From the IMG/VR virus record IMGVR_UViG_2718217709_000004: a DNA stretch of 23,245 bases. One strand, given 5' to 3'. Source of the DNA: a virus (Duplodnaviria > Heunggongvirae > Uroviricota > Caudoviricetes). The position numbers and the translations under genes were made by a program. Within the stretch, counting starts at the first letter, position 1; each line of letters opens with the position of its first letter. The notes under the pieces were generated by a model. That model was not told the DNA's origin, made no database searches, and was given only the letters and a program-made list of their open reading frames with translations. Positions 781 through 22,243 of this stretch are shown here, piece after piece.

Positions 781-822
781 AGCGACCTCCCTTAACGTGG
801 TGCTGCCGCTATTCTAAGTTGC

Positions 823-3274: not shown

Positions 3275-3786
3275 TGGCTGTACCAAAACATCTTCGCTTT
3301 TTTACGCTGTTTGTGGATGGTGAAAACGAAGTGGGTAAGGTGACGTCCGTCACCCTGCCTAAACTGACGCGCAAAACCGACAGCTACCGGGGTGGTGGCA
3401 TGATGGGTGCGGTAAGTATTGATCTCGGTCTGGACGACTCCGCGCTTGATGCGAGCTTTGTCATGGGGGGCGCAGTTCGTGAGCTGTTCCTTAAGTATGG
3501 CGGCACGATTGACGGCACGCTACTGCGTTTTGCGGGTGAATACTACACCGATGCAGAAAGCGACCTGTATGAAGTCGAAATGCGCGGACGCGTGACGGAA
3601 ATTGATATGGGGGAAGCCAAACAGGGCGAAGCCACATCACACACTTACGCCATTAAAAACACCTACTACAAGCTGAGTGTTAACGATCGTCCGTTGTGGG
3701 AGATTGACCTGCTGAACTTCATTTACCGGAAGGACGGCAAGGACATTGTGCCCGATCGCATCCGTTCCGCGCTTGGGCTTGGCTGA
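3274..3786 (+). CDS. FII: tail tube protein (P2 gpFII-like)
   Basis: 170-aa ORF translationally coupled to FI; size and position match gpFII. Confidence 0.85.
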   Translation: MAVPKHLRFFTLFVDGENEVGKVTSVTLPKLTRKTDSYRGGGMMGAVSIDLGLDDSALDASFVMGGAVRELFLKYGGTIDGTLLRFAGEYYTDAESDLYEVEMRGRVTEIDMGEAKQGEATSHTYAIKNTYYKLSVNDRPLWEIDLLNFIYRKDGKDIVPDRIRSALGLG

Positions 3787-3840
3787 TAAGTAATATGCAG
3801 GCGGCGCAGTGCGTCGCCTCTGACTGAAAGGAGTTTCCTG

Positions 3841-4206
3841 ATGAAAGAGACGAAAAACATCGATACCGAAAACACGGTAGTTGCTGACACTGTGAAAGAA
3901 ACCAGTGAGCGTGGCGTAAAACTTACCCAACCAATTGAGCGAGGCGGCGAAAAAATCACGTATGTGGAGATCACCGGGGCTATTGAGCAGGCTGGATCTC
4001 TGCGAGATTTGTCGCTGTCTGATGTGCTGAATCTGAAAGCGGAATCCATGTTTACGCTGCTGTCACGAGTGACATCACCGCGACTGGATGAAGTGACGAT
4101 CAAAAAAATGGCATCCCGTGACTTTATTCAGTTATGTGTGGTTGCCGTAAATTTTTTGAGCGGTGCGGACTCTGGCGGGAAGAACGAACAGGCGACGGAA
4201 GCCTGA
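3841..4206 (+). CDS. E: tail assembly chaperone (P2 gpE-like)
   Basis: 121-aa acidic protein between tube and tape measure genes; carries a slippery TTTTTTG near its 3' end. Confidence 0.8.
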   Translation: MKETKNIDTENTVVADTVKETSERGVKLTQPIERGGEKITYVEITGAIEQAGSLRDLSLSDVLNLKAESMFTLLSRVTSPRLDEVTIKKMASRDFIQLCVVAVNFLSGADSGGKNEQATEA

Positions 4207-4370
4207 TCACGGTTGTGTGCTTTGAGCACATAGAAGACTTTGTGGCAGATATTGCCGTTATTTTTAACTGGTCGCCCGCCGAAATCTTCATGATGACGCC
4301 CGGCGAAGTGGTTAGCTGGCGTGAGCGGGCGGCACTTCGCAGCGGGAATGCAGACAATGAAGACTCTTGA
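3841..4370 (+). CDS. E+E' frameshift product (programmed -1 frameshift)
   Basis: Slippery heptamer T TTT TTG at 4152-4158 in the E frame; the -1 frame stays open to 4370 (same frame as track ORF 4134..4370) and ends overlapping the T start. This is the conserved chaperone frameshift arrangement. Confidence 0.65.
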
Positions 4371-7164
4371 TATCCGGGTCGCTTTCAGCGCCGTTGACAG
4401 GCTGACCCAGCCTGCCGAAAACGCCCGCCGCCTGATGGGGCAGTTTGGTGACTCCATCCAGCGAACGCAGGGGGCGATCAAAAATCTCGAGCGTCAGGCG
4501 CGTTCATTTGAGCGCGCCCGCGACGCTGTCAGTAAAGCGGATGCGGGTATCGTGAAAGCACGACGCCAGCTTAACGCCCTTAATCAGTTACAACGCACGG
4601 GTACAGTGCTCAGCGAAAAACAACAAAAGCTGATGCAGCAGTTAAGCACCCGGCTTGAACGCCTGAATGAATCGCGCACGCGGGAAATTCAGAAAATGCG
4701 GGAGCTTGGCGGAGAGCTGAAACGCCACGGCATTTCCCTGACAGGCAGCGATAACACCATCCAGCAGGCCATCAGACGCACCGAACAGTACAACAATCAG
4801 CTTGAACGCGAACGGCAGGCGCTTGCGCGTGTAACGCGGGCGCGTGAGCGGTATTCGCGCGCGCAGGAAACAGCGGGAAAACTGAAAACAGGTGGTGCAC
4901 TGGCAATTGGTGCGGCAGCGGCGGGCGGCTATGCTGCCGGGCGTTTTTTGCAGCCTGCGATCGGGTTCGGGAAAGAGATGTCCCGCGTTCAGGCACTGAC
5001 GCGAATCGACCAGAACAGCCCGCAGTTTAAGGCGCTGCGTGAGCAGGCGTTAAAACTTGGCTCTGAAACGCAGTTCACCGCAGGCGATGCCGCCAGTGGG
5101 CAGGCATTTCTGGCAATGGCTGGCTTCACACCGCAGGCCATTCAGGCTGCGCTTCCCGGCGTGCTGAGCATGGCAACGGCTGGCGGTATGGACCTTGGCG
5201 AGACGGCAGATATTGGCTCAAATATCCTGACGCAGTTCGGCCTCTCCGCTGACCAGATGGACCGGGTCGGTGACACGCTTACAGCAGTGTTTACCCGTAC
5301 TAACACTGACCTTCGCGCACTGGGCGAAACCATGAAATATGCAGGTCCGGTGGCGGGTAAGCTGGGAATATCGCTGGAGCAGGCCGCAGCGATGGCGGGC
5401 GTGCTGGCGAATATGGGTATCAGAGGGAGTGATGCCGGGACGGCAATGCGTGCCAGCCTGGCTCGTCTGGCATCACCGCCAAAGGCGGCAGCAGAAGCGC
5501 TGAAAGAGCTGGGTGTGTCCGTCTCTGATGCGAACGGCAAAATGCGCCCGATGGAAGATGTGCTGGCCGACCTTTATAAAGCCACCCGTAAATACGGGGA
5601 AGTTGACCGGGTATCGTTCTTTAAGGACATTGCCGGGGAAGAGGCTTTCACGTCGTTTATGGCTCTCGTTGATGCGGCGGGTGACGGCTCCCTGCCCAAA
5701 CTGAGAAAAGAACTTGAGGGCGCACGCGGTGAGGCTGAACGCACGGCAAAGGTTATGGCCAATAACCTTGATGGCGACCTGAAATCACTCGGCAGTGCAT
5801 GGGAAGGGCTGCGTATCCGCATTGCAGATCTGATTGATGGTCCGCTGCGTTCTGTCACGCAGTGGCTCACGCGGGTGGTCTCAAAGGTGACGGCGCTGGC
5901 ACAGGCCCATCCGGTACTGACGCGCCAGTTACTGATAGCAGGCGGTGCGCTGCTGGCAATGACTGCAACGGTTGGCTCGTTGTCGCTGGTTATTGGAGTG
6001 CTTCACGGGAAGCTGGCCACGTTGCGTCTTGGTTTTTCTCTCCTGACCGGATCAATGAATGCTGTCAGGCTCCTGCCAGCACTATGGGGAATGGTGACGG
6101 GTTCCGTTTCGTTACTGGGGGGCGCTATCGGGGCGCTGTTCAGCCCGGTCGGATTGATTGCTGCTGCGTTTGTGGCTGCGGCAGTTCTCATCTGGAAATA
6201 CTGGGAACCCATCAAGGCGTTTTATGCCGGGGTGTTCAGCGGGATTATGGAGCGGCTGGCCCCGTTACGCGAAACCTTTGAACGGTTTGGTCCTGTTTTT
6301 GACGCAATCGGAAGCGGGATAAGTCAGGTGTTTAACTGGTTTAAATCGTTGCTGTCACCGATGGAGTCCAGCAAGGAAACGCTGGATAAATGTACCAGTG
6401 CTGGCGAGATATTCGGTAACGTTCTTGGCGGTGCGTTACAGCTTGTTCTGACGCCCGCAAAAATGTTGCTGGATACGCTGGCGTGGATACTTGAAAAACT
6501 CGGTGTGCTTCCGGATGAAGCGGAAAGGGCGAGAAAGAAAATCGAAGACGCACAGCGTGCGGCCATTCTTCAGGACAAGGTTGCTCTGTTTCAGGGAGAC
6601 ATTGCGAAAATCAATCCGCCGAAGTCTGCGGAAAATGGCAATGGCACCGGAGGTGATAAACCCAAAGACAATAAACCGCTCACAGACAGCAATACCGGTA
6701 CGCTACGCAGACTCAGCAAAATTGCTGATAACACAGGTAAGCTGGTTGATGAGACGAAAAAACGTATTGGCCCCGGCGATATTGTCTTTAAGAACCTGCC
6801 CCGCGCACTTGCCGTTCGTGGGGAGTGGCAGGAGCGGAAGATTGTGCAGGTCAGTAAGCCTGCCCCCGCAATTAATATCACACCCGTGGTCCCGGCTCCG
6901 CTGCCTCCGGCGCTGGTCCCTGTTGTTGCGGCCAGCTCCCGCCCGGTGGCGGAGGCCATACGATCTCCAGTGGCATCAGTTCCTGTAACTTCCCGTAACC
7001 GGGAGCCTGTTGCCTCCGGATTTGGTGGTGAAATTCATGTTCATCTGCATAACGTTGTTACGCAGAATCCCCGCGAACTGGCGAAACTGGTCGGTGAAAT
7101 GGTCAGGGCAGAAATGGAACGGCGCGCCCGTGCCGGGCGTGGCAGTTTTTACGATAAAGATTGA
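4357..7164 (+). CDS. T: tail tape measure protein (P2 gpT-like)
   Basis: Long ORF (about 940 aa) with an N-terminal coiled-coil region, central hydrophobic/Gly-Ala-rich segments and a Pro-rich C-terminus. Start is uncertain between 4321, 4348 and 4357; 4357 (MKTLDIRV) overlaps the E' stop. Confidence 0.85.
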   Translation: MKTLDIRVAFSAVDRLTQPAENARRLMGQFGDSIQRTQGAIKNLERQARSFERARDAVSKADAGIVKARRQLNALNQLQRTGTVLSEKQQKLMQQLSTRLERLNESRTREIQKMRELGGELKRHGISLTGSDNTIQQAIRRTEQYNNQLERERQALARVTRARERYSRAQETAGKLKTGGALAIGAAAAGGYAAGRFLQPAIGFGKEMSRVQALTRIDQNSPQFKALREQALKLGSETQFTAGDAASGQAFLAMAGFTPQAIQAALPGVLSMATAGGMDLGETADIGSNILTQFGLSADQMDRVGDTLTAVFTRTNTDLRALGETMKYAGPVAGKLGISLEQAAAMAGVLANMGIRGSDAGTAMRASLARLASPPKAAAEALKELGVSVSDANGKMRPMEDVLADLYKATRKYGEVDRVSFFKDIAGEEAFTSFMALVDAAGDGSLPKLRKELEGARGEAERTAKVMANNLDGDLKSLGSAWEGLRIRIADLIDGPLRSVTQWLTRVVSKVTALAQAHPVLTRQLLIAGGALLAMTATVGSLSLVIGVLHGKLATLRLGFSLLTGSMNAVRLLPALWGMVTGSVSLLGGAIGALFSPVGLIAAAFVAAAVLIWKYWEPIKAFYAGVFSGIMERLAPLRETFERFGPVFDAIGSGISQVFNWFKSLLSPMESSKETLDKCTSAGEIFGNVLGGALQLVLTPAKMLLDTLAWILEKLGVLPDEAERARKKIEDAQRAAILQDKVALFQGDIAKINPPKSAENGNGTGGDKPKDNKPLTDSNTGTLRRLSKIADNTGKLVDETKKRIGPGDIVFKNLPRALAVRGEWQERKIVQVSKPAPAINITPVVPAPLPPALVPVVAASSRPVAEAIRSPVASVPVTSRNREPVASGFGGEIHVHLHNVVTQNPRELAKLVGEMVRAEMERRARAGRGSFYDKD

Positions 7165-7176
7165 GGAGTCATGGCC

Positions 7177-7665
7177 ATGATGATGATCTACGGCATGTTT
7201 GTTTTTGAGCTGCGCACGCTGCCGCATCAGCAGTTACAGCAAAACAAAAGCTGGCGGCATGTGAAAAATGAACGCGTTAACCGTTCAGCAAGCTGGCAGT
7301 ATATCGGTGCAGGTGATGATCGCATCGTTCTTTCTGGTGTGCTTTATCCTGAAATTACAGGTGGCGAAGTGTCGCTGTCGCTGCTGACCACGCAGGCGTA
7401 TACAGGACGACCCTGGCCTTTGATTGATGGCGTCGGGCAGATTTACGGCATGTATGTCCTGACCGGAACGAACACGACCCGTTCCGAGTTTGATCGCTAC
7501 GGTAAGGCGAAAAAGATAGAATTTTCACTGACCCTTGAACGCTGTGATGAGGATTTGCGGGAGCGCCTGCAATCCTCATCGTTCAGCGATATGCTGTCCG
7601 GCTTCAAAGATAAAGTGACATCATCCCTTAACAGCGCGGCCAGTTCAGTTAAAGGGCTGTTCTGA
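7177..7665 (+). CDS. U: tail protein gpU-like
   Basis: Motifs VLSGVLYPEITGG and WPLIDG...IYGMYV parallel P2 gpU. Start chosen at the second or third ATG (7177) for spacing from the GAGGAG RBS at 7163-7168. Confidence 0.8.
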   Translation: MMMIYGMFVFELRTLPHQQLQQNKSWRHVKNERVNRSASWQYIGAGDDRIVLSGVLYPEITGGEVSLSLLTTQAYTGRPWPLIDGVGQIYGMYVLTGTNTTRSEFDRYGKAKKIEFSLTLERCDEDLRERLQSSSFSDMLSGFKDKVTSSLNSAASSVKGLF

Positions 7666-7682
7666 TTTAATGCTGGCCACTC

Positions 7683-7714
7683 ATACCTGGTAATAAGTGG
7701 CCAGTCTTAACACT
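7683..7714 (+). terminator. hairpin downstream of U (possible terminator)
   Basis: 9-bp stem ctggccact / agtggccag with a 14-nt loop; the downstream tract is only weakly T-rich. Confidence 0.35.
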
Positions 7715-7827
7715 CACCATTTGATTGCACCCGCGTTAACGATTTGTTACTGGGTATCAGACATGCTGGATAGCCAGTAGAAACATACCATTAAAATTAT
7801 TACAATAATTGGTCACATGATTATCTT

Positions 7828-8391
7828 ATGCTGAATAATAGAGATATGAATATTAATGAACTTAAAGACTGTATTCACTATGAAGTAATCGGTAGCGAGC
7901 GTCCTTTCTCCTGGCGAAAGGCAATTGTTCGCGCAATAAAACATAGAAGACTTCGTTATTTATTTTGGTGGCGCATAGCCAAATACCTTTTTGATAAAGG
8001 CGGATACTGCCGGAAGATTGCGGGGAAAATAGAACGTTTCATTCTTGATAAATATAATGTAACAGTCCCTTTAACTGTAAATATAGGGAAAGGCTTTGAT
8101 ATTTCTTATCTCAACAGTGTTGTTATCGGTCACAAAGTAACAATCGGTGAAAATTGTTCAATAAAACCGGGGGTAACTATTGGGCTACGTGGTGATTTTA
8201 ATGATATGGATATTGTTATAGGACATAATGTGACCATTGGTTGTAATGCCACCATTCTTGGTGGCAAAGTGCGTATAGGAAACAATGTCACAATAGGTGC
8301 TCATGCATTGGTATTGCATGATATTCCTGATGATTCAACATTCATCACTAAATTTCAGTCTGAAGTTATCTGCTCGTCCTCCCGCACATAA
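7828..8391 (+). CDS. hexapeptide-repeat (left-handed beta-helix) acetyltransferase, serine acetyltransferase/WcaB-like; cargo gene
   Basis: Repeated [LIV]-G-x-x-x-x hexads ([21 protein letters not shown]...[34 protein letters not shown]) and an N-terminal [13 protein letters not shown] segment typical of this acetyltransferase class. The region 7680-8400 is markedly AT-rich against GC-rich phage flanks. Start codon uncertain (7828 or 7846). Confidence 0.75.
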
Positions 8392-8972
8392 CCCTGATTC
8401 ATCAGCTCTGGCCATACGATATCCGGAGCTGTACTGGTGTCAATTCTACTCACTAATACTCTGTATTTTCTCCAGGAATCCAGTTGTGAATTTTCCTCGT
8501 TTGTTGCTATTTCAAGATTAACTGCATCCTGCAGAATTGCGATGTTATCTGTTGCCTCCTGGATCAACCTTGCCTTTTTCTCTTCCGCTTCCCGTATCCG
8601 AAACAGCTTTTCTGCTTCCTCATCCTTCACCCAGGATACGCCGTCCCACTTCTGATATTCCCCTGCTGGCGACAACCAGGTGACATTCTCTGGTAGCGGT
8701 CCGGGTTCAGAAATAAACAACGCGTCCCCCGATGCCACGTCATAGACCGTTTTACCACGATGGTCTTCAACAATATTCCACGATTCATTTTCACTGTTAA
8801 AAATTGCCACAAAGCCAGCAGGAATTTCCGGTGGGGCGATATCTGTAGAATTAGCTGGCAGCCCTGTATGAGGTGGAATATATGCGTCACCTTCACCAAT
8901 AAACTCATTAGTTCCGGCCAGCAGGTTATAAATTTTTACAGTACGTGATTGTTCACTCATTCTGAATGCCAT
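8355..8972 (-). CDS. G: tail fibre assembly chaperone (P2 gpG / Tfa-like)
   Basis: 205-aa ORF directly downstream of the tail fibre gene with the C-terminal [23 protein letters not shown] signature. Its last ~12 codons overlap the acetyltransferase gene in antisense. Confidence 0.8.
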
Positions 8973-11629
8973 TATGCAAGCCTCACAATATAATTAAATG
9001 CGATGTTTTTAACGGTGTTTTCCGCGTTACCAGCAGCGTTAACGGTGATGGTATGTCCATGTGAACCAATCGCAACAGAGTGCGTATGAGCGCCAATACC
9101 AACAGTGTGTGCATGTGCCCCAGCACTTGTAGCGGTACCTGATACTGAGTGGGTATGTGCGCCAGAAGAAGGCACAGTTCCATTCCCCACCACCGTGCCA
9201 CTTGATGCACCATCCAGCCAGTCGAAATTCATACCGCCACTGTTTGGTCTCCTTAATGGAACGGTATGAGTATGTGCGCCAGCACTATTTGCAGTACCAG
9301 ATACATTGTGGGTATGTGCACCTGTGTTATTCGTTGATTTAGTACCGTAATCAAACGAAGATGTGGTTTTCGTACCCAAATCCGTATTGGATGCGCTGGC
9401 GCTGTGGGTGTGCGATTTAATGCCATCCTGTTCCAGAGACAATACGTCCCGACCACTGGCGGGTTTGCCCTTGATTGTCCAGCCACGCATATCCGGGATC
9501 ACGCCTGACGGATAAGCGGCTGCAAGTTTCGGGTATGCAGATTTGTCAAAAGTCTGTCCCTGCATCAGGGCGTAACCAGACGGCACAGTATCTGATGGCC
9601 ACGGCAGCGGAACACCTGGCGGAAACGCTTCAATATTTGCCGAGCCGTCAAATTTTACGCCGTTAATTGTCCTTGCCGTTTTCAGCTTTGTTGCTGTAGC
9701 AGCATTGCCGGATAGTTCGCCTGAAAGACCACCGCTGAATGTCTGTTTCGCCGCCCATGTCTGAGCTTCGTCGATAATTGGCACACGTCTTGTCGTAATC
9801 GTGCGGCTTCCCGGATTTCCTGAAATGCGAACCATAAAAAAGCGGTAATTCGCTTTACTTACAGTGCTGCGCCATACATGCATTGAGCGCCCCGTACCAG
9901 AATCATCACTCGGACCAACTGCGATGTTTATCAGGTTGCCATCAATGACGCCCCAGTCCATACCGTCGGGAATATTGGTCATGTTATCAAGCCGAACGGT
10001 TATCAGACTGCCCGGCACAAAATCGTAGGTCTGCCAGTCCAGGCTGGTGAGTTTTGCCACTGCGCCACCGATACCCAGATTCAGGGGAAGTGAATAAGAT
10101 GTGTAAACTTCCCGCCATTCGCTCCACGAGCTGCCGGTATAAACGCGCTCAAACGTGCGACCTTTAAGGGTTGCACCTGTTCCGGCGGTTGTATAACGTT
10201 GCCATACGTTAACGCCATCAAAGCGCCTCAGCACTTCCAGAATACCGAGTACAGTCACGCCGTTTCCGTCCAGTATTGGACCATTGGTCGCTTTACCTGT
10301 AACGCTGTAAATACCTGGTGAGGTTACATCATTCAAATCACCGTCGTAATAACGGCTTTCTGACTGGTAGCCCACTCTTGACCACGGCTCCCATTGTGGG
10401 TTCTCTGCATCCCACGAGGCCGAAAGACAGCGAACATAAACATTTCCACGGCGGGTCGTGTAACGCTGCGTTCGCGAGTAACCACCACCTTCAAGAACTT
10501 CAAGGAGTCCCTGACCATAACTTCCTTCTTCCGGATAGTTGCGGTCAAATGAAGCGATTGAGCCACTACTGTTTCGCCATAAACCAAGATGCTCTGCGCC
10601 TCCGAGCGTGTTCAGGTCAATGGTTGTGCTCAGGGGGCGTGTTGCAGACTGAACCTGACGCCAGTAACTCCACGGACCGTCTGAACCATTCCATGTGCCA
10701 GAAAGGTTGCGCATATAAACATTGCCTGTTCTGGTGGTGTAACGCTGCATTCCTGCAAAATTACCGCCATTGAATACCTCCAGTACACCGACTGCACCGT
10801 CTTCAGGGAAATTTTTAGCAGCCGTCGCGTTAGTGGATGTAGCTTTAGACCAGACGCCAAGATAAGCCTTAACGGGACCAAATGTATTCAAGTCAGCATC
10901 AAGCGGCATTTCGCCATTGTTTTTCATAAACGTCAGGCTGGTAACGCCAACATTGTCCAGAAAAGCGCCCTTATCTGGAATATCGTCACCGTTCTGGTCT
11001 TTCTGCATACGTTTTTCAGCATTGTCATAGGCTGCTTTTACTGCCTTTGGCGTTGCCGCCAGCTCTTCACTGGTGCTGTTTGTTGCGCTACTTAACTGAG
11101 TAAAACCTTTTTCTGTCAGCGTGGCGTCAGGATGGCGGCGGGATTGCTCATGCTCTGCGATTTTGTCATCGACGTAATCCTGCGTCGCCATCACTGTGCT
11201 GGCATCAATACTCAGCTCAACGGACGCTACGTTGCTGACAGTAATAACCATGCGGCAGGTCTGCGCGCGCCCGGAGCCTTCAGCGAGTTCAGGCTTATAG
11301 CTTTCCGCCATGTTAGCGACCGCAATCAGTGTTCCGGCATCGTCATACAGACCCAGCTCACGCATCCAGAAGCCGCCCACTTCTGGCGGTACAACCAGTT
11401 CAGCCACGATATAGTTTTTATTCTTGTTATCCACGCTGACTTTATTCAGAGCGTGACGCCAGACCTCATGCACCAGTTTCGTCTGACCGGCATCCGGCAC
11501 CGGCAATTTGCCATTACCGTCACCCACGGCCATTGCAGACAGAGTTACTTTTTTCCCGCCGGGGACAGTGGCGGCTGCCAGCTTCGCGGCTCCGGCAGTA
11601 GTGATAGCGGTTTTAAATTTCGTGCTCAT
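8972..11629 (-). CDS. H: tail fibre protein (P2 gpH-like)
   Basis: 885-aa ORF with a conserved P2-type N-terminal region, three internal repeat units (QRYTTRxGNVY...W..W) and a C-terminal region with iterated GAHTHxV HxH motifs, followed by a Tfa gene. Confidence 0.85.
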
Positions 11630-11639
11630 TGTTTCTCAC

Positions 11640-12167
11640 TTATCCGGGATAAACAGTAATAACATCACCATCACAGACCACACCGCCTGTATACAGATAG
11701 CCGGGAATGTCCTGGATAATGTTCAGGCCGATAAGGTGGCGACTTGCGGGTTTGGCATCGGCAATCAGCCGTTCCATTTCCAGATACATTTCCTCGGTCA
11801 CACCACTGTCCAGCGTGCCAACATCAACCTTGAATGTTCCGGGTTCGCCGTCGAACTCCCACCACTCAGACACGCGAATGAGGTATCCCAGCGGCTCAAT
11901 GGCCCGGCGCAGTGCGCTGATGGTCCCTTTGTGTCGGTGTATCAGCCATGCATCACGAATAACCTGTCGCTTTGTCTCTTCCGGCCAGTTGCGATCCCAG
12001 CGGTCAACGGAAAATGCCCAGGCGAGATAAGGCAGCAGATGCACCGGGCAGGTGTCCGGTGACCACAGCGTGTTGAGGTCTACCGGGATGTTTGTAATGC
12101 GCGCTCCGACAGCTTCGGCGCAACGCATGAAATTGCTGGCTGATGGTGGTAACAGTGAATTACTCAT
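11640..12167 (-). CDS. I: baseplate assembly protein gpI-like
   Basis: 175 aa from MSNSLLPP; the ATG overlaps the stop of the upstream J fragment. Size and position match gpI. Confidence 0.8.
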   Translation of the reverse strand: MSNSLLPPSASNFMRCAEAVGARITNIPVDLNTLWSPDTCPVHLLPYLAWAFSVDRWDRNWPEETKRQVIRDAWLIHRHKGTISALRRAIEPLGYLIRVSEWWEFDGEPGTFKVDVGTLDSGVTEEMYLEMERLIADAKPASRHLIGLNIIQDIPGYLYTGGVVCDGDVITVYPG

Positions 12168-12474
12168 TACGCCCACCTTCGCTGATGGTGAATGACTCAC
12201 AGCGCGCCGCCTGTATGTCGCTGATGGCCATATTCTGTGTGGGTTCGATTATCTCCACGCGTTGCACACCGTGCACATGCAGTGCGGCAGCAATGGCGGA
12301 CAACGCCACGTCCTGACCGATAAGCCCCTGCTCAGCCAGCCACTTCCTGAACGACGATTCAGCCGCAGCCAGAATAGGTTCGGATTCCGGGCCGGGATAA
12401 AAGTACAGTTTTGCATTCAGCCGCCATGTCACGATTCTGGCGCTCTGACGGGCATGGCGAGAGATAGTGCTCAA
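12160..12474 (-). pseudogene. J: baseplate gpJ C-terminal fragment (5'-truncated)
   Basis: Only about 100 codons remain of a ~300-aa protein (...ILAAAESSFRKWLAEQGLIGQDVALSAIAAALHVHGVQRVEIIEP...). No J N-terminus, W, V, S or R genes lie upstream. Confidence 0.7.
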
Positions 12475-12619
12475 CGTTCACGCGGGCAGCGTAAACATCC
12501 GGGTTGAAGTTCTCGGCGGCTTCACGCAGATGTACCGGGCTGATTTCGCGGCCATCAACAGTTGATCCGGAGACAGCCACGCGAAACTTTTTGCGGGATG
12601 TCTTTTTTTCATTAGCCAT
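12359..12619 (-). pseudogene. O: capsid scaffold gpO N-terminal fragment fused out of frame to the J remnant
   Basis: MANEKKTSRKKFRVAVSGSTVDGREISPVHLREAAENFNPDVYAARVNVEHY parallels the P2 gpO N-terminus; GAGGGG RBS upstream. After about 50 codons the frame runs through J-derived sequence and stops at 12359. Confidence 0.7.
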
Positions 12620-12773
12620 AGTTTTTGCCCCTCTGACTGGTTCTTCAGTCATGATGGCAAAGCGTAACAGGCTGATACAAAGGGCTTTTGTTGTAAGAAA
12701 ACGGCCAGAACAGGGGGTTAAGGAGAACGGTTTCGCGCGCGGGTAATCTTCCTGTAATTACTCAGGGGGAGCA

Positions 12774-14036
12774 ATGATTCAGGACGCTTTTGTGCGCCAG
12801 CGTGCGCGGCAACTTTACTGGCAGGGTTATCCGCCCGCAGAAATATCACGTCTGATGGGAATAAACCCGAACACGATTTATGCGTGGAAAAAACGCGACC
12901 AGTGGGATGAAACGCCCCCCGTGCAGCGTGTCACGCAGTCCATCGATGCGCGCCTCATCCAGCTTACTGAAAAACAGAATAAAACAGGCGGTGACTTTAA
13001 GGAAATAGACCTGCTGACCCGGCAGCTTAAAAAGCTGCATGATGGCCAGCCGGATGTGATGGCCGCAGGAAAGAAAGGCCGGGCGAAAAAACTTAAAAAT
13101 CATTTCACGCCGGAACAGATTGCCGCACTGCGGGAAAAAATCATCAGCAGGCTGGAGTGGCATCAGCGGGGCTGGTTTGACTCCCTGACACTTTGCAGGG
13201 AAGCCGGGATACGTAACAGGATGATCCTGAAATCCCGACAGATTGGGGCGACCTGGTATTTTGCACAGGAAGCTCTGCTGATGGCGCTGCGTGACGATGT
13301 GGCGCAACCTTACCAGCGTAACCAGATTTTTTTGTCTGCGTCGCGTCGTCAGGCGTTCCAGTTTAAAAGCATTATTCAGAAGGTCGCGGCTGAAGTTGAT
13401 GTGGAGCTGAAAGGGGGCGATAAAATCATCCTCTCCAACGGCGCAGAGCTGCATTTTCTCGGCACTTCTGCTGCGTCGGCACAGTCCTATACGGGCAATT
13501 TTTATTTTGATGAATTTTTCTGGGTCAGTCGCTTTGCTGAACTGCGCAAGGTGGCTGGCGCTATGGCAACCCTCAGCGGACTGCGGCGCACCTACTTCTC
13601 CACGCCATCCACCGAAACGCACGAGGCGTACGCCTACTGGAACGGCGACCGCTGGAACGAGAAAAAGGCCTCGCATAAACGCCAGCGTTTTTCTGTGGAC
13701 TGGAAAACGCTGCATAACGGGCTTATCTGCCCTGACCGGACTTGGCGGCAAATTGTCACGCTGGAAGATGTGGTTAATCACGGCTGGAAACACACCGATA
13801 TCGACGAAATTCGTGATGAAAACACCGAAGACGAGTTCCTCAATCTCTATATGTGTGAGTTTGTCCGCGAAGGGGAATCGGCATTTAACCTGAATATCCT
13901 GATTGGCTGCGGTGTTGACGGATACGACGACTGGAAAGACTGGAAACCTTTTGCTCCCCGCCCGATGGGGAATCGTCCGGTATGGATTGGGTATGACGCA
14001 AACGGCAGCAGTGGCAACGGCGACATGCCAGCTTGA
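12774..14036 (+). pseudogene. P: terminase large (ATPase) subunit gpP, 3'-truncated
   Basis: N-terminal two-thirds of a P2-type large terminase (MIQDAFVRQRARQLYWQGYPPAEISRLMGINPNTIYAWKKRDQWDE...). The ORF ends at 420 aa and the A gene stop is only about 110 bp away, so no portal Q or cos can follow. Confidence 0.8.
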
Positions 14037-14146: not shown

Positions 14147-16969
14147 TCATATATCGCGGCGCGTTTTTTGCTCATTTACGGGATTTGTGAATCCCGTTTC
14201 TGTCTGTTTTTTGTTTCCACTGGTCAGGCCACCCCGCAGCAGGTCTGCTTTGCGGTGGGCGCGTTCAGTTGTTTCACTGATTCTCTGTGCGTGCTCTGCG
14301 TCGCGGATGGCGCGCAGCATGTCAGAAAGTACGGTAACGGGTGTTTTCATGGTGTTCTGGTCTTGCTGAAGTGTGGATGCCAGGCGTGCGGCGGCTTCAT
14401 GGTCTGATGCCCTTAGTTGTTCCAGATAGCCGGCGACCGGGTTATGGCGGATCTCCGTGCTGCTTACGCCGTGATTACGGCTCAGGCGCTGCCAGAGCTG
14501 CGTGATTCGGCTGTCCGGGCGGGTATCCGGTTTGCGTACAATTTCAAATCCCTGCGGTGCAATGATGCTGCCGTCAACGTACAGGCTGCCGCCCCGTAAC
14601 AGGTGCTGCATCTGCTGTTCACCGATATGCAGGCCGAGAGATTCGGCAGATTCCCGCCATTCTTTAGCGAGTAATTCGTGGTTATCAGGCAAAGGCCGCT
14701 GCTGTTTGCGGCTCTGTGTCCAGCTCTGCATTTCATCACTGCTGTTTTTTGCCTGTTTGTCACGCAGCGAACGCATCAGCGCCCGGCGTTCGTGCCGTTT
14801 CAGTGAGCGCATCCAGTCATCCACATCAACGCCGTCAGGAAGCTGCGGCCACAGTGCTGGCCGTTCTTCCGGCTGTTCTGTCCCGTTGTTGTCCGTTTCC
14901 TGTACACGGGGACAGTTATTGCCACGAGTCCAAGGGGCGGCAGGGCCGCCCTGAAGGTCAAAACCATTTTCGTGGGCGTTGTCTTCCGGTTCTGGTTTAC
15001 GTCTTACCAGCTTCCAGTTATCCGGATGCGTGCACACACGGGAGGATTCCCCGATGAGTGGTGACCAGATCCCGTAAATCTGTACGCTCTGTTCGCCGTA
15101 ATCGTTCAGCTCATCTGCGAGGTCGTAGGCGGTGCGAATCAGGTAGTCCTTGCGTGGAACAAGCACGCCACCCTGTTTTTCAATGTAGGTGGCAAAACAC
15201 CCGGCATCGGCGGCAGCGAGTACCGCATCCATTGCATCATCTTTCAGCCGTTGCGGGCCTTCCGGATTGCGTGCCATCTGGCTGGCAAGGCGGCGCAGTT
15301 CACGCCACACCTGACGGGAGGGGATGCCAAAGAACTGGAACTGACGGACCCGGTGAAGGCGCGCCCAGCCGATGGCGCGCTCCACGCTCTCGGCCATTGA
15401 TTTTCCGGTTTCGTGGTCAACGCGTGGCTTGCCCGTTTTCGGGTCGATGCCATCCACGGCGCGGCTGTCCAGGTTCTTTCCGATGTAGGTGGCGATGTAG
15501 CTGGTTGGTGTGCCTTTTGAGCCGTCGACATACTCCGCCTTAAAACGCGGAGTTATGTCATCGCCCAGCTCGTGGCGGTCCTCCTGAATGGCAATATCGC
15601 AGACGTGGGACACGATGGTTTCAATCTCGTCCGGATGTGCAAAGACCATCATATGCCAGTGCACAGTGCCGTCATGGTGAGGCTCCACCGTGCGGATGCC
15701 ATACCAGCGCAGGCCGTCGCGGTTCAGTTTTTTGCGGACCGCCGCAAAAAACGTGTTAACCAGGTAATCGCTGGAGTCGCGCATGGTGGCCCCGTTCCAT
15801 TTGGGGTTCGGATGACCGTTCTCCGTTGTTGCGTGGTATTTTGACGGGCAGGTGACGGTCAGAAACACCGCTCTGTCGCCACGGGCTTCGGCCAGAAGTT
15901 CCAGTCCCTTCATGGTGGCCATCATTTCTGCCTTACGGTGAACCGGGTTACTTACTCCCGCGTAATACACCGTCTCGAGATCAATCGTGAACCCGTCTTC
16001 ATTTTCCAGCATGAAACTTTTCAGGAAATCGCGTGTTTTCTCGCGCTGTGCGCGAAACTCGCTTAACGCGTCCTGGCTCAGATAGGGGGATGTTTTTCTG
16101 GAAACCAGACAGGCGGCGCGGAGTTGTTCTTCCCGCCACTCACAACGTAACAGCCACAGTTTGCGTTTCCACCATTCCGCACAGGTCAGGCGAAGGATTG
16201 CGCCCGGCAGCAGCTCCGTGTCCGGTTCGTTCCTCCGGTCTTTGTCTGTTGTCAGTGCGTCATAATGTGGAGGCATGGCGTGCAGGTGTAACGCCATGCG
16301 GGCCAGCATCTGATAAGCCTTCAGCGTTACATCCATGGTCAGCTCGCCATCAGTCGCGCCAAAGCCATCGCAGAGTTTTTCGAAGGTGCTGCTGAACATC
16401 GCCGCCGTCATGGTGGCCAGCGTCTGTATCTGGTGTTTGTTGAGCTGCGGCAGGTAAAGCAAATCATCCAGGCGTTCGCGTCCGGCAAGGGAGCGATAAC
16501 CCGGTGTCAGCCAGCGGTGGTCGGTGCGGTCCAGACGTTCGAATATTTTGCGCAGGGTTCCGCACGCGTAGCGTTCAGCCTGCCAGCTCTTGTTGCCTTT
16601 CCGGCGATCGGCTTCCTGTTTTTTGCGCAGGAAGGAGAGGTGGCGAATAAGCGGATCGCGCAGATAGGACGGCAGCAGGCGCAGCGAGGCCATGGCTTCA
16701 TCCACCGCGCCACGTGCCTGTTTTCTGGCGTCTCCTGCCAGTGTGATGGTTTTGTCCTGTTTTTCCTGTGCGTCCAGGCTTTTATTAATCAGGTTGCCCA
16801 GCGGCGTGGCGGAGAACGCCGCATCAGCCATTTCCTGGCGGCGCTCGTTCTCTGCCCGGTAGGCATCCAGCCAGGAGGAAAGCGCGGATTCAGGAGCGGG
16901 GATCCCCGTTCCTTCACGCCCCACTGCGTGGCGCGGTTGTTGCCAGTCCCTGATGTACTCTGCCGTCAT
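14147..16969 (-). CDS. A: replication initiation endonuclease gpA (rolling-circle initiator)
   Basis: 940-aa ORF with the conserved YGIRTVEPHHDGTVHWHMMVF and YIATYIGKN catalytic-region motifs of P2/186 A proteins. It is longer than P2 A, so the C-terminal extension may be junction-derived. Confidence 0.85.
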   Translation of the reverse strand: MTAEYIRDWQQPRHAVGREGTGIPAPESALSSWLDAYRAENERRQEMADAAFSATPLGNLINKSLDAQEKQDKTITLAGDARKQARGAVDEAMASLRLLPSYLRDPLIRHLSFLRKKQEADRRKGNKSWQAERYACGTLRKIFERLDRTDHRWLTPGYRSLAGRERLDDLLYLPQLNKHQIQTLATMTAAMFSSTFEKLCDGFGATDGELTMDVTLKAYQMLARMALHLHAMPPHYDALTTDKDRRNEPDTELLPGAILRLTCAEWWKRKLWLLRCEWREEQLRAACLVSRKTSPYLSQDALSEFRAQREKTRDFLKSFMLENEDGFTIDLETVYYAGVSNPVHRKAEMMATMKGLELLAEARGDRAVFLTVTCPSKYHATTENGHPNPKWNGATMRDSSDYLVNTFFAAVRKKLNRDGLRWYGIRTVEPHHDGTVHWHMMVFAHPDEIETIVSHVCDIAIQEDRHELGDDITPRFKAEYVDGSKGTPTSYIATYIGKNLDSRAVDGIDPKTGKPRVDHETGKSMAESVERAIGWARLHRVRQFQFFGIPSRQVWRELRRLASQMARNPEGPQRLKDDAMDAVLAAADAGCFATYIEKQGGVLVPRKDYLIRTAYDLADELNDYGEQSVQIYGIWSPLIGESSRVCTHPDNWKLVRRKPEPEDNAHENGFDLQGGPAAPWTRGNNCPRVQETDNNGTEQPEERPALWPQLPDGVDVDDWMRSLKRHERRALMRSLRDKQAKNSSDEMQSWTQSRKQQRPLPDNHELLAKEWRESAESLGLHIGEQQMQHLLRGGSLYVDGSIIAPQGFEIVRKPDTRPDSRITQLWQRLSRNHGVSSTEIRHNPVAGYLEQLRASDHEAAARLASTLQQDQNTMKTPVTVLSDMLRAIRDAEHAQRISETTERAHRKADLLRGGLTSGNKKQTETGFTNPVNEQKTRRDI
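14175..14210. repeat. hairpin-containing direct repeat, copy 2 (inside the 3' end of A)
   Basis: tttacgggatttgtgaatcccgtttctgtctgtttt: same stem as copy 1 with a different loop, about 29/36 nt identical. It encodes the last residues of the A ORF (TETGFTNPVNEQK). Confidence 0.6.
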
Positions 16970-16975
16970 AGTGAT

Positions 16976-17341
16976 TTACTTCGTCATGCCATTCAGGGTG
17001 TCGCGGCAGACTGTAGCCAGCCGCTGAATTTCCAGCACGGTGTCTTCTGTGTCGGCATGGCGATGTGTGATGCGGATGCTGTCGGCAATCACATCGACGA
17101 TTGCAGAGGATGGGCGCTGGTAAATGCCAATAACGGACGGGGTGCCACCTTCAATGCGGTAAAGCCTGTAATTTCCCTCGTGGCTGTCAATCATGTAGCG
17201 ACCATCAATAACAATCTTTCCGTCAGCGAGCTGCGGTACAGGCAGGGATTTCAGGTACATGTCATAACGATCACGCACGCGAGCGGCAAGATCTCGTTCT
17301 GTGTTGAGCAGGTATTCAAGAAAGTCGTTGGCGAGAATCAT
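16976..17341 (-). CDS. hypothetical early protein (121 aa) immediately upstream of A
   Basis: Intact ORF whose stop lies 6 nt before the A start; family not recognised. Confidence 0.5.
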   Translation of the reverse strand: MILANDFLEYLLNTERDLAARVRDRYDMYLKSLPVPQLADGKIVIDGRYMIDSHEGNYRLYRIEGGTPSVIGIYQRPSSAIVDVIADSIRITHRHADTEDTVLEIQRLATVCRDTLNGMTK

Positions 17342-17413
17342 TGCGGCAATCCTCTTGTTACAGATGTGCGAAGGCCTCCCGCCGCAAGGTGCAGGAAAGG
17401 CCCGGAACAGGAA

Positions 17414-17644
17414 TTAATGGAGTTTGTTTTGCTGCTGGATGAGCTGTTGAAGCTCGTGCAGATCATCCGCCAGATAGCTGAAAACAGAGGCGGAATAAAT
17501 GTTTGATAGTGCGTGGCTGCGCTCATGCAGCATATTGATGTGCATGATTTGCGCGACGCGTGATGCGCGGGAAAGTCTGTGGTTGATTTCAGTCTGGATG
17601 TGACGACGCTCCGCGATAGTGCGGTGCTGTTTGCGGTCTGCCAT
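17414..17644 (-). CDS. hypothetical small early protein (76 aa)
   Basis: AAGAGG RBS about 7 nt upstream of the ATG; charged, helix-rich sequence; preceded by a structured leader. Confidence 0.5.
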   Translation of the reverse strand: MADRKQHRTIAERRHIQTEINHRLSRASRVAQIMHINMLHERSHALSNIYSASVFSYLADDLHELQQLIQQQNKLH

Positions 17645-17819
17645 GGTGTGGCCTCTTTGCTCGGTGATAGAAATAACTCACCATCCAGAGTTGAGAATCT
17701 CGGGGTGGCGAGACGTACAGGGTTCTCAACACCGGAGAGCAAAGAATCCGGCCCGACCGAAGTCGGCCCCGTACGCCCCGCCATAATTCTGACGCGAAAA
17801 AGACGTGGCAATACAGTGC

Positions 17820-17842
17820 GCACAAAAAAACCGCTTGCGCGG
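17820..17842 (-). terminator. rho-independent terminator within the early region (minus strand)
   Basis: On the minus strand: aaccgc-gcaa-gcggtt stem-loop (GNRA-type loop) followed by a run of seven T. Confidence 0.5.
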
Positions 17843-17966
17843 TTATGCGCTTTGCTCTGTATCGGGTTGAGAATCCCGGCACCCGTTTTATGAGCTGCAG
17901 CGGAAATGTAACCTGACCGATTGAGGCATGGCAAGCGGTTTTTTTGTGTGTGCATGTTCTGGTTTC

Positions 17967-18266
17967 TTACTGGTTCAGAAAAAAATCAAAAACGTTATCG
18001 ATGCGTTGCAGCAGCTCTTGCTGCATTGCTTCCGGCGTTTCCGGTTCGCCAGGTGCCCCCAGCGTTGCGCAGAAATCAGCGATTTCATGATGGAGCGTGA
18101 GGCGAATGGCAGGAGCCGTGGTTCTGGCGTGCTCCAGCTGATCCAGCAGTGCCAGCACAGCAGACGGCGAGAGCATTGCGCGAAATGCCAGTAATTTTTG
18201 AGGCGTTGCCATTCGTTGCAGGGCAAATGCCAGTTCGCGTAGCTTCTGGTGGTTGATGGTGCTCAT
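17967..18266 (-). CDS. hypothetical early protein (99 aa)
   Basis: ORF translationally coupled to the upstream gene; family not recognised. Confidence 0.5.
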   Translation of the reverse strand: MSTINHQKLRELAFALQRMATPQKLLAFRAMLSPSAVLALLDQLEHARTTAPAIRLTLHHEIADFCATLGAPGEPETPEAMQQELLQRIDNVFDFFLNQ

Positions 18267-18529
18267 GCTCTGGCTTCCTTCAGTAGCTGGTTAAACATGT
18301 GAGTAAGTGGATTGCTACACCCGAACAGCATCGGGTTTACGTGGTAAGAAGCCTGGCCTCCTGTTTTGCGAGCGCGACCACCTGTGCTGCGGTTTGTTCT
18401 GATGACTAAGCCGCCGCGCCAAAGTCGGCGTAACTCAGCATTAATGGCTGTGGTTGGGGTATTCAGTGCTGCGGCGATCTCTCCGCCGCTACACCCCGGA
18501 TGAGTAGCGATGTAGTCCAGAATGGTCAT
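18263..18529 (-). CDS. small winged-helix-like DNA-binding protein (88 aa)
   Basis: GGEIAAALNTPTTAINAELRRLWRGGLV resembles a winged-helix recognition helix plus wing; start and stop overlap the neighbouring genes. Confidence 0.5.
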   Translation of the reverse strand: MTILDYIATHPGCSGGEIAAALNTPTTAINAELRRLWRGGLVIRTNRSTGGRARKTGGQASYHVNPMLFGCSNPLTHMFNQLLKEARA

Positions 18530-18729
18530 CTGCGTGGCTCCTGTACCTGTCGGATAAGATTCACCCGCGCCACGTTGGTGGCGCAGAAGTAAGTGCCGTC
18601 AGTGAGGTAGATGTGGTGTGCATCCTTTTCCGAACGATGTTTGTCGATAGTGGTAATCAGGCGTTCGTCGACCTCGTATTCGCGCCCTCTGGAGGTAAAG
18701 CGAACGACGGGAAAATGCTTAATTGCCAT
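18526..18729 (-). CDS. hypothetical early protein (67 aa)
   Basis: AAAGGGGG RBS upstream of MAIKHF; stop overlaps the next start. Confidence 0.5.
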   Translation of the reverse strand: MAIKHFPVVRFTSRGREYEVDERLITTIDKHRSEKDAHHIYLTDGTYFCATNVARVNLIRQVQEPRR

Positions 18730-18752
18730 TGCGCCCCCTTTGTCCAGTAACC

Positions 18753-18944
18753 CTATGCGTTAAATACGGCACATTGCGCGTCATCAATGAATACAGCTTG
18801 AGAGCGTTCTATCAGGCGGAGATTTGTCAGAAGCTCTGACTCTTTTGTGTGGTAAGGCGTTATCAGGTATTTGCCGTGCAGTTCGGCAATAATGGTGTAT
18901 TGCAGCATCATTGCTGAACCAAGAATATAAAATGCAGCGTCCAA
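18753..18944 (-). CDS. hypothetical small protein (63 aa), possibly the 3' part of a frameshifted gene
   Basis: ORF overlaps the distal part of the 19170 ORF in another frame; no clear RBS. Confidence 0.3.
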   Translation of the reverse strand: MDAAFYILGSAMMLQYTIIAELHGKYLITPYHTKESELLTNLRLIERSQAVFIDDAQCAVFNA

Positions 18945-18949
18945 TGCTG

Positions 18950-19170
18950 GACGGATTCATGGCTGCAACTGTTGACTGTGTTTTAAGAGTGTCGATTTCT
19001 TTGCTCTGTTCCTCAATAACTTTGGCTGCTTCAGAGGCGGCTATTGCGATGGTCAGTGCGTAAAGCGCTGCCATATGTTGATTATCTTTCTGGGCTGCCC
19101 TGGACAGCTTGTCTTGCTCTGCTGACACTATTTTTAATGTATTGATAATATTTTTTTCTTTTGCGTTCAT
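18950..19170 (-). CDS. hypothetical coiled-coil protein (N-terminal ~70 codons of track ORF 18784..19170)
   Basis: The N-terminal part is helical and protein-like; beyond about 18950 the same frame becomes low-complexity and overlaps the 18753..18944 ORF, suggesting a frameshift or an early natural stop. Confidence 0.3.
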
Positions 19171-19262
19171 TTTATATCTCCGTTATTTACGTGTGCGAAT
19201 ACCTCCGCGAATGCGGATAGTTTTCAGGTTTTCGGGTTTAATCTGGTGTTTTGTTTAAGCTG

Positions 19263-19376
19263 TTATTTGTCAGTAAAAAAGCGTTCAATCTTTTTTACTG
19301 AATGAATAATTCGCATAATCCCAATGGCGCAGGCCACCGAAATAATCAGAACAAGCCATGAGATAAATATACTCAT
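19263..19376 (-). CDS. small single-pass membrane peptide (37 aa)
   Basis: Hand translation gives MSIFISWLVLIISVACAIGIMRIIHSVKKIERFFTDK; the ATG overlaps the stop of the upstream gene (ATGA). Below the ORF-track size cutoff. Confidence 0.45.
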   Translation of the reverse strand: MSIFISWLVLIISVACAIGIMRIIHSVKKIERFFTDK

Positions 19377-19615
19377 GCGATATTCCCCAGCTTATACGGT
19401 TCAATGTGTTCCCCGCATTCTGCGGCACAGATCAGCTCGGAAAGTTCGTTAAGTGCATCCAGATCATCAGCGTAAAAAGCAACGTCATACAAACTCCGGA
19501 TTGCCCTGGTCAATGAGTCACGGGCTGCATGTTCAGCATGAGCGCCTGATGCACTTAAGCGAAAATAAAATCGTTCAAGTGCTTTGTTAATGAGAGTTTT
19601 ATATTCTTTGCCCAT
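19373..19615 (-). CDS. hypothetical early protein (80 aa)
   Basis: Intact ORF in the early operon; family not recognised. Confidence 0.5.
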   Translation of the reverse strand: MGKEYKTLINKALERFYFRLSASGAHAEHAARDSLTRAIRSLYDVAFYADDLDALNELSELICAAECGEHIEPYKLGNIA

Positions 19616-19626
19616 CGCAACGCCCT

Positions 19627-19905
19627 TTAATCTGCTTTCTGAATTTCAGCTTCTGAATCCATACAAATAATTTCGATATAGGGTTCATCGCCATTAACCT
19701 GACGTGCCTTTTCAGCTTCGCTAATGATTTCTCGTACGGTCTGGTACGGAAGCTCCACAGTCAGGCGCGTACCGTTCAGATAAACGTAAGTAGTTGCGTT
19801 TTTTTCGGATGGAACAACTCCGTCAATGGCTGATGCGCGTAATAACAGTTCACCGCGAAAATCAATAAAACGGATAAATACACCTTGTGCATGCTCTTTG
19901 GTCAT
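19627..19905 (-). CDS. hypothetical early protein (~92 aa)
   Basis: Start placed at MTKEHAQG (ATG 19903-19905), 10 nt after the upstream stop; the longer track ORF would overlap the preceding gene. Confidence 0.45.
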   Translation of the reverse strand: MTKEHAQGVFIRFIDFRGELLLRASAIDGVVPSEKNATTYVYLNGTRLTVELPYQTVREIISEAEKARQVNGDEPYIEIICMDSEAEIQKAD

Positions 19906-19915
19906 AAAGCACCTG

Positions 19916-20266
19916 TTATAAATCAGCCTGTTTAATAAAACTTTGCCCGCGAAGCAGACGATCAACCGTGCGAAGTGCTTCGTATAATGTGAAATCCTGC
20001 CCGAAGTGATTGTCGCCGCAGTTCAATGCAAAAATGCGGTTTCCGGTAAACGGATTGCGTGGGCATTTGTGGATCACGATTCCAGCTTTCTCAATCAGCC
20101 AGGCATGCTCGCCGATTTGTTTTACAGCGTGGCCATCCGGTGTTGCGTGCGTCTCGTTCAGGTTATAGCGACTGTTACTACGTGATGCACTGGTAGCGAC
20201 GTGGTGTACATGGCGTTCTACGCTATTACGAAATTTGGAGTATGGATTATTAGCGTTTTTTTTCAT
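19916..20266 (-). CDS. hypothetical early protein (116 aa)
   Basis: Intact ORF; family not recognised. Confidence 0.5.
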   Translation of the reverse strand: MKKNANNPYSKFRNSVERHVHHVATSASRSNSRYNLNETHATPDGHAVKQIGEHAWLIEKAGIVIHKCPRNPFTGNRIFALNCGDNHFGQDFTLYEALRTVDRLLRGQSFIKQADL

Positions 20267-20287
20267 GATGGTGCTCTGTTCATTGTT

Positions 20288-20491
20288 TTAGCTGTTAGCC
20301 AAAGCGTCTTTTAACATCGCCACAAGGTTTACTTCAGGCTTTTCCATTTTGGCGCGTTTGGGGCGGATAATAATTCGACCGTCAGCCAACATCTTTTTGC
20401 ATGTATTAAGAGGGATACCTGTTATCTCTGCATATTTCTGCAGGGATACATAGGGGGCATTCACATTGATATTGATGGTTATACCTGACAT
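20288..20491 (-). CDS. small DNA-binding protein, Cox/Apl-like (possible excisionase / switch regulator)
   Basis: 67 aa; YVSLQKYAEITGIPLNTCKKMLADGRI resembles the helix-turn-helix of P2 Cox-type proteins; second gene of the lytic-side operon. Confidence 0.45.
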   Translation of the reverse strand: MSGITININVNAPYVSLQKYAEITGIPLNTCKKMLADGRIIIRPKRAKMEKPEVNLVAMLKDALANS

Positions 20492-20507
20492 CCCACTAGC
20501 CTCCTGA

Positions 20508-20714
20508 TCAGGAAGATTTGTTTTGTTCTTTCTGGGTTAGCTCTAGGCCGCGAAGGAAGATCATGCGCGCCATGTTAGAGGATGAGCGTTGTTCTTTAGC
20601 TGCCATTTCATCAATGACGGCTCGCTCCTCGAGGGACAGCCGAAGTGCCAGTCTTGGACCTGTGGCGGTGTTACGCGGAATGCGTGATCTGGTATCGTGA
20701 AGAACTTGTTTCAT
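20508..20714 (-). CDS. ribbon-helix-helix (Arc/CopG-like) regulator, first gene of the lytic-side operon
   Basis: ALRLSLEERAVIDEMAAKEQRSSSNMARMIFLRGLE fits the beta-strand / helix / helix pattern of RHH proteins; transcribed divergently from the repressor gene. No obvious RBS. Confidence 0.5.
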   Translation of the reverse strand: MKQVLHDTRSRIPRNTATGPRLALRLSLEERAVIDEMAAKEQRSSSNMARMIFLRGLELTQKEQNKSS

Positions 20715-20756
20715 AGTGGTATATTGTGATCATCTAATAGCTCGTGAAATCATTTT

Positions 20757-20774
20757 GGTATCAAAAAAGATACC
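20757..20774. promoter_or_regulatory. palindromic candidate operator in the divergent switch region
   Basis: Perfect inverted repeat ggtatc-aaaaaa-gatacc between the divergent RHH and XRE genes; a second ggtat half-site and a tgatca palindrome lie at 20718-20732. Confidence 0.4.
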
Positions 20775-20790
20775 TGTCAAGGTTTTTTGT

Positions 20791-21195: not shown

Positions 21196-21210
21196 TAGTA
21201 GGGAGGTGAC

Positions 21211-21861: not shown

Positions 21862-21890
21862 TCTTACTTGAGCTAAATTGAGGTAATGAT

Positions 21891-22238: not shown

Positions 22239-22243
22239 CTAAA

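Follow-up and report, generated by a model that had tools for sequence, protein, structure and literature searches.

The prophage remnant described here has its closest intact relatives in the phages P88 (NC_026014) and PhiR44_2 (PV340564), both of Xuanwuvirus (Peduoviridae). Reduced elements of P2 type have also been described. For instance, R-type tailocins (bacteriocins derived from P2 tails, such as R-pyocins) encode a P2-type sheath, tube, tape measure and fibres but no head, and they retain a complete baseplate, the tail-completion genes and a lysis cassette. The cryptic P2 remnant of E. coli K-12 (ogrK and a fragment of gpD) is likewise a P2-family prophage that deletions have eroded to pseudogene fragments. 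Its erosion has gone much further, down to a couple of genes, as compared to the roughly 26.5 kb, with many intact genes, that remain of the element reported here. Sp13 of E. coli O157:H7 Sakai is, like our element, a P2-family prophage that has lost most of its morphogenetic genes; it keeps its early, replication and integration functions together with a derepression gene resembling P4 epsilon (Asadulghani et al. 2009, PMC2669165), is inducible by mitomycin, and experiments have shown its excision, replication and packaging (PMC2669165). Deletional decay of prophages is well documented (PMC2669165, PMC6379469). We found no published description of the present locus: it is absent from the ETEC genome papers (PMC8085198, PMC13212926), of which the reference-genome paper listed only prophages scored as “intact” by PHASTER and excluded the others (PMC8085198), and the L2 paper (PMC13212926) does not mention the strains that carry this locus.

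The stretch of DNA that we analysed, called the window below, is 23,245 bp long and is 100% identical to the reverse complement of positions 2010405-2033649 of the chromosome of E. coli 254D-1 (NZ_CM180503.1), a strain isolated in Nicaragua from human diarrhoeal stool; its lineage is best read as enterotoxigenic-type E. coli. In this strain the element is bounded on one side by tRNA-Leu (preceded by pgsA, tRNA-Gly and tRNA-Cys) and on the other by a phage integrase gene, that is, on the chromosome with the integrase at one end and the host locus adjoining, as in P2-family integration. Its genes follow the P2-type order int-early-A...Q P/O N M L...V W J I H G...FI FII E T U D ogr, and matches to the Pfam families Phage_GPO, Tail_P2_I and Terminase_5 support the same class. 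By BLAST the window is collinear with both P88 and PhiR44_2 except for two gaps, at 80-99.6% identity across its length, and gene order and orientation are as in these phages, whose FI, FII, U, I and D proteins are identical or near-identical to those of the window. Identity to P88 is 96.8% over the tail block, 97.8% over the P'-O' block and 96.5% over the replication block; to PhiR44_2, the intact phage that serves best as reference on either side of the junction considered here, it is 97-99.6% around that junction, with 99.6% over H-I-J' and 98.2% over O'-P'. The window and PhiR44_2 differ in that the phage contains the intervals 15223-22493 and 8277-13644 of its own genome, both of which the window lacks. 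The sequence thus identifies the element as a P88-like prophage (Xuanwuvirus, Peduoviridae, P2 family). An earlier note on this DNA had read it against P2 gene order; the proper comparator is a P88-like phage rather than P2 itself.

That note had described, at 12160-12652, a deletion scar in which the conserved start of gpO, with its ribosome-binding site, runs for about 50 codons and then reads out of frame through DNA that encodes the C-terminus of gpJ. The reading frames, the ribosome-binding site and the homology are all found at these positions, and only the length calls for correction, the true figure being 58 codons (12619..12446), after which 28 codons are read from J DNA in a frame 2 nt away from that of J itself. 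The limits 12160 and 12652 are the outer ends of two overlapping minus-strand ORFs (12359..12652 and 12160..12474). Translation of the homologous gpO begins at the ATG at 12619 and not at the upstream ATG at 12652; residues 1-58 show 100% identity both to PhiR44_2 gpO and to that of the sister strain E8, and they match positions 2-52 of the 268 in Phage_GPO (E=8e-18). Codon 58 of gpO is joined out of frame to codon 204 of gpJ, and the fused frame stops at 12359-12361. On the other side, J' is without the 203 N-terminal codons of the gene. The J' protein is identical to the C-terminal 95 aa of E8 gpJ, and tblastn aligns residues 200-298 of PhiR44_2 J to it at 97% identity; because a Pfam search with the J' fragment alone returned no match, we identify J' by its nucleotide and protein identity to full-length J. 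The coordinates of these and neighbouring features are collected in Table 1.

Table 1. Features at and around the two deletion junctions of the window (feature, position, strand, basis).
gpI, intact; start overlaps the end of J'	11640..12167	-	100% identical to PhiR44_2 gpI; Pfam Tail_P2_I, E=2.5e-52
gpJ' pseudogene (last 95 codons and stop of baseplate gene J)	12160..12447	-	identity, tblastn, PGAP
Fusion ORF, 86 aa (58 gpO residues and 28 out-of-frame residues from J DNA)	12359..12619	-	translation, ORF table
gpO' pseudogene (first 58 codons, capsid scaffold/protease)	12446..12619	-	100% identity, Pfam, PGAP
Junction 1, 2-bp microhomology (TG on +, CA on -)	12446..12447	.	three-way alignments against PhiR44_2 and E8
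RBS of gpO, GAGGGG, 8 nt upstream of ATG 12619	12628..12633	-	sequence reading
Divergent P/O intergenic region, retained	12620..12773	.	within the block 12441..14025, 97.8-98.2% to P88/PhiR44_2
Terminase large subunit P', about 417 of 583 codons	12774..14036	+	Pfam, tblastn, PGAP pseudogene
Junction 2, 2-bp TG microhomology, P' to parM'	14024..14025	.	three-way alignment against PhiR44_2
parM' remnant, first 15 codons	14026..14070	-	tblastn, parM residues 1-15 100% identical; alignment
Replication endonuclease (gpA-like), intact, adjoins junction 2	14147..16969	-	940-aa ORF; PGAP; 88% to PhiR44_2 gpA

The breakpoint of the O'/J' junction (junction 1), which the earlier note had proposed to pin by alignment together with any microhomology, falls on a dinucleotide. 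Read on the minus strand, the match to O stops at 12446 and that to J starts at 12447; TG/CA at 12446-12447 is all that the parental O and J sequences share there, and the nucleotide identity of 98-100% to intact phages on either side ends abruptly at one position. We rejected mosaic replacement by foreign DNA and IS-mediated deletion as origins, there being no extra bases and no IS remnant at either of the two junctions of the window. RefSeq (PGAP) annotates O' in 254D-1 and in a second isolate, 360D-1, as a pseudogene, “GPO family... missing C-terminus”, and J' likewise as “baseplate assembly protein... missing N-terminus”. The preferred reading, to which we give a probability of about 0.93, is that O'/J' is a real deletion scar in the late region of a prophage, made by illegitimate deletion at a short microhomology. 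The scar is one of ordinary prophage decay, and the O', J' and P' fragments are flagged already as pseudogenes in RefSeq.

The DNA missing at junction 1 corresponds to PhiR44_2 15223-22493, or 7,271 bp. It holds O codons 59-278, N, M, L, an X-like and a holin-like gene, a peptidoglycan hydrolase gene (P88 has at the endolysin position a gene annotated as Peptidase M15), one hypothetical gene, R, S, V, W and J codons 1-203; the losses thus fall on the capsid (N, M, L and the remainder of O), on lysis (the whole cassette), on tail completion (R and S) and on the baseplate (V, W and most of J). When the late proteins of PhiR44_2 were searched against the window by tblastn, none of the deleted genes gave a match, and D, FI, FII, E, T, U and I were found at full length, as was the replication gene A. 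The list of losses that the earlier note had drawn up, from the rest of O through to the J N-terminus, is therefore essentially right.

A second deletion, absent from that note, lies at 14024/14025, where 5,368 bp (PhiR44_2 8277-13644) are missing. Gone with it are the portal gene Q, a partition gene, a number of small ORFs, the C-terminus of the terminase large subunit and the rest of parM, whose place is immediately downstream from the replication gene. P' keeps its ATPase domain and has lost about 166 C-terminal residues: only Terminase_5 and Terminase_6N are found in it by Pfam, and tblastn covers P residues 1-420 of 583. Between the two deletions an island of 1.58 kb, comprising P', the promoter region and O', has been left stranded. 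Since junction 2 independently removes the portal and the terminase C-terminus, the loss of head formation and packaging does not depend on junction 1 alone. If synteny in the P2 family is a guide, the second deletion probably took the cos region beside Q as well. The P2-type 19-nt cos, searched with up to 4 mismatches, had no match in the window, P88 or PhiR44_2, and as the intact references are likewise negative this probe is uninformative for P88-like phages; nor did the P/O intergenic region (12600-12790) contain an exact Ogr-type TGT-N12-ACA motif. With neither motif located, both the loss of cos and read-through from the late promoter are drawn from P2-family synteny, on which late transcription from the O-proximal region would run through the junk ORF into an untranslatable J' and then into I-H-G.

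With regard to mechanism, perfect microhomology at the six junctions that we examined, in this prophage and its relatives, measures 2, 2, 4, 2, 2 and 4 bp, some of these being scored against a reference of 97% identity. Among 200,000 junctions simulated in PhiR44_2 the probability of 2 bp or more at a random junction was 0.16, so that a single 2-bp junction is not significant by itself and any mechanistic claim has to be made on all six. As a group they point to illegitimate recombination at short homologies that is independent of RecA, either by slippage or by microhomology-mediated joining. As to sequence of events, the 5,368-bp deletion came first, removing parM, Q and the terminase C-terminus, and the O'/J' deletion is a later step, from which two pseudogenes remain and, downstream of the still intact RBS of gpO, a junk ORF of 86 aa.

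This order comes from the sister strains. Junction 2 is common to eight E. coli genomes (E925, E8, E54, E1648, E1654, E2386, 254D-1 and 360D-1), and junction 1 occurs among isolates in 254D-1 and 360D-1 only, which makes junction 2 the older. The sister strains carry the prophage at one and the same site, and its retained DNA is 99.9-100% identical among them. In E925 (the reference of ETEC lineage L1), E8, E54, E1648 and E1654, O is intact, the N-terminus of N is fused to the C-terminus of V, and intact W, J, I, H and G follow; this N'/V' junction has 4 bp of microhomology and marks a deletion of about 5 kb (PhiR44_2 ~16190-21166), with the scar at 11604-11885 / 11240-11608 of the extracted E8 locus and at the same coordinates in E925. 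E2386 has taken another path: O' (47 codons) is fused to M and M to FII' (11486-12744 of its extracted locus), the second of its late-region deletions having removed the FII C-terminus, E, T, U and the fibre genes, and its integrase end is further eroded. The comparison describes a stepwise, branching decay, in which a shared first deletion was followed by at least three alternative paths through the late region, the window representing the third.

A related prophage, with intact P, Q and parM, has undergone an O'/J deletion of its own in the pig strain P15-25 (E. coli O139:H1); its junction has a 4-bp GTTA microhomology (12848-13225 and 12001-12906 of the extracted locus). The left endpoints of the independent deletions, at PhiR44_2 15189, 15222, 15403 and 16190, lie in O or early N. 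We did not adopt a left-endpoint hotspot, as ascertainment by the O-proximal probe and selection against the lethal genes downstream can explain the clustering.

The earlier note had held that one junction accounts for the whole loss. The deletion scar itself stands, but in view of N'/V' in five sisters one junction need not equal one event. O'/J' might be the last of two nested deletions, N'/V' (about 5 kb) having come first and a deletion of about 2.3 kb having then swallowed it, a history that we regard as a serious though less probable contender. In its favour, N'/V' is present in five sister genomes whose retained prophage DNA is 99.9-100% identical, the N'/V' deletion falls wholly inside the O'/J' deletion, and relative to E8 the window is short of only about 2.3 kb. 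On the other hand, E2386 keeps most of M, so the ancestor with junction 2 still had M and N'/V' is not ancestral to all eight carriers; 254D-1 also lacks the IS1 seen in the acetyltransferase gene of E8 and E925. Both histories take two events, and the SNPs of the prophage are too few to resolve the tree. Under either, the decay of this prophage can be followed through the locus and its sister genomes as a clean and datable series in a single ETEC lineage. The junctions could be of use in marking lineages, or as a modest natural collection of illegitimate recombination events in E. coli.

By its gene content the element is to be classed as a textbook defective prophage, a decaying remnant, with virion-essential genes lost or truncated relative to an intact close relative (PhiR44_2) and with PGAP pseudogene flags. 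Judged from that content it should be unable to make capsids or heads, to package DNA, to lyse the cell or to build a baseplate. By annotation, int, the repressor region, the derepression gene, the replication endonuclease gene, ogr and hok/gef are intact, and because the integrase, regulators, derepression gene and replication gene remain, the element may, on the model of Sakai Sp13, retain the capacity to excise or replicate and yet spare the cell. The parallel has its limits, in that the behaviour of Sp13 was shown experimentally in a different strain with a different insertion history.

This leads to the question of whether such losses are favoured. Three junction sets in one ETEC lineage and the separate O'/J deletion of P15-25 show recurrent loss of head, lysis and baseplate genes, and most carriers keep int, the regulators, the derepression gene, the replication endonuclease, hok/gef and the sheath, tube and fibre genes. 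It is conceivable that this recurrence reflects positive selection for a non-lethal, inducible, replicating element rather than neutral decay; we consider it unlikely. If it were so, the element might be kept for immunity, for its cargo (acetyltransferase, Hok/Gef) or for prophage-prophage interactions of the kind seen with Sp13. On the preferred reading, ordinary decay, the practical upshot is that the locus should be annotated as a defective prophage with O', J' and P' as pseudogenes, and it has little significance beyond annotation.

A stronger proposal would make the junction part of a design, the element being a functional derivative, either a headless particle of tailocin type or a helper-dependent satellite. 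The sheath, tube, tape measure, U, D, I, fibre H and its chaperone are all intact, as are ogr, int, the replication gene and the regulators; deletions of the O-to-W block have recurred independently; and in Sakai Sp13, a prophage likewise P2-like and defective, induction and even packaging still occur (PMC2669165). A contractile particle, however, requires V, W, J, R, S and a lysis cassette, all of which are missing or truncated here: tblastn found no V, W, R or S in the window and only residues ~204-298 of J, so that the complete tail module of an R-type tailocin is wanting, and no holin or endolysin match that could supply a lysis cassette of its own. Tailocins have all of these. The breakpoints moreover lie inside codons and leave out-of-frame fragments, and E2386 has lost still more of the tail (FII C-terminus, E, T, U and fibres). 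As to a satellite of P4 type, defined by a cos site that a helper's terminase recognises and by helper-manipulating genes (sid, psu, delta, alpha primase), the gene content is that of a P88-like phage and not of P4, the cos region next to Q would by P2-family synteny fall in the second deletion, and at blastn sensitivity the chromosome holds no P2-like head genes that could act as helper. We infer that the element is not a tailocin and probably not a satellite, and hold a functional derivative to be very improbable.

The distribution of junction 1 bears on whether it is real. A 301-bp probe spanning it found a full match in only 2 (254D-1 and 360D-1) of the 5,426 complete E. coli genomes; its O half and its J half had separate matches in more than 1,000 others. 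The metagenome contig ERZ1106915 NODE_1895 also contains an exact 24-mer that spans the junction, and it aligns to window positions 1-13923 in one piece at 99.7%, albeit with a coverage of only about 3x; an exact 36-mer had no match among the IMG/VR viral_contigs. The earlier note had also called for a search for the missing genes elsewhere in the genome. A chimeric probe made of the J'-O'-P' block and 800-nt segments of capsid gene N and portal gene Q hit a single place, the locus itself, on each of the 254D-1 and 360D-1 chromosomes, so that at the sensitivity of blastn with word size 11 (about 65-70% identity or better) neither chromosome has a second copy of N, Q, P or O. That junction 1 is an assembly artefact, a collapse or a chimeric join with the late genes really present, is the least credible of the alternatives: the record is a chromosome-level WGS entry, and the two isolates have adjacent accessions (CM180503, CM180504), both come from Nicaraguan diarrhoeal stool and may share a project or pipeline, but the junction is identical in both isolates and in a metagenome contig that was assembled independently (one 13.9-kb alignment), which argues against misassembly, as do the absence, at that sensitivity, of the deleted genes elsewhere on either chromosome, the fact that the breakpoint offers no repeat above 2 bp on which an assembly might collapse, and the other clean deletions in the same prophage of sister genomes.

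Several further features of the prophage deserve mention. Between gpU and the fibre-assembly gene, where P88 by comparison has an invertase and an alternative fibre cassette, the window carries as cargo a hexapeptide-repeat acetyltransferase gene (“serine acetyltransferase”, 7846-8391, +); it is intact here, and in E8 and E925, the two sisters inspected, it is split by an IS1 with a 9-bp target duplication. At the D-proximal end the prophage has kept a Hok/Gef family toxin gene (~190-330, -), a module that might help to stabilise the remnant, and a gene for an Ogr/Delta zinc-finger late activator (520-780, -). An intact gene for a “derepression protein” (17414..17644, -) lies beside the intact replication and regulatory genes and has its published parallel in the P4 epsilon-like gene of Sp13. 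Further along the early region, a hypothetical gene (18753-19170, -) is split into two ORFs and is annotated by PGAP as “frameshifted” in 254D-1, E8, E925 and E2386.

The immunity region sets the window apart from its intact relatives, in that neither P88 nor PhiR44_2 gives a BLAST match to the window beyond ~20233. The regulatory genes at 20233-22240, upstream of int, encode an HTH protein, a 216-aa protein and a DUF2511 protein, and the lack of a match over this stretch in the two phages indicates a mosaic exchange of the immunity module. Outside the window, a second site-specific integrase gene and a pseudogene adjoin the prophage integrase in 254D-1 (27352-29369 of the extracted locus), which suggests a tandem island at the same locus.
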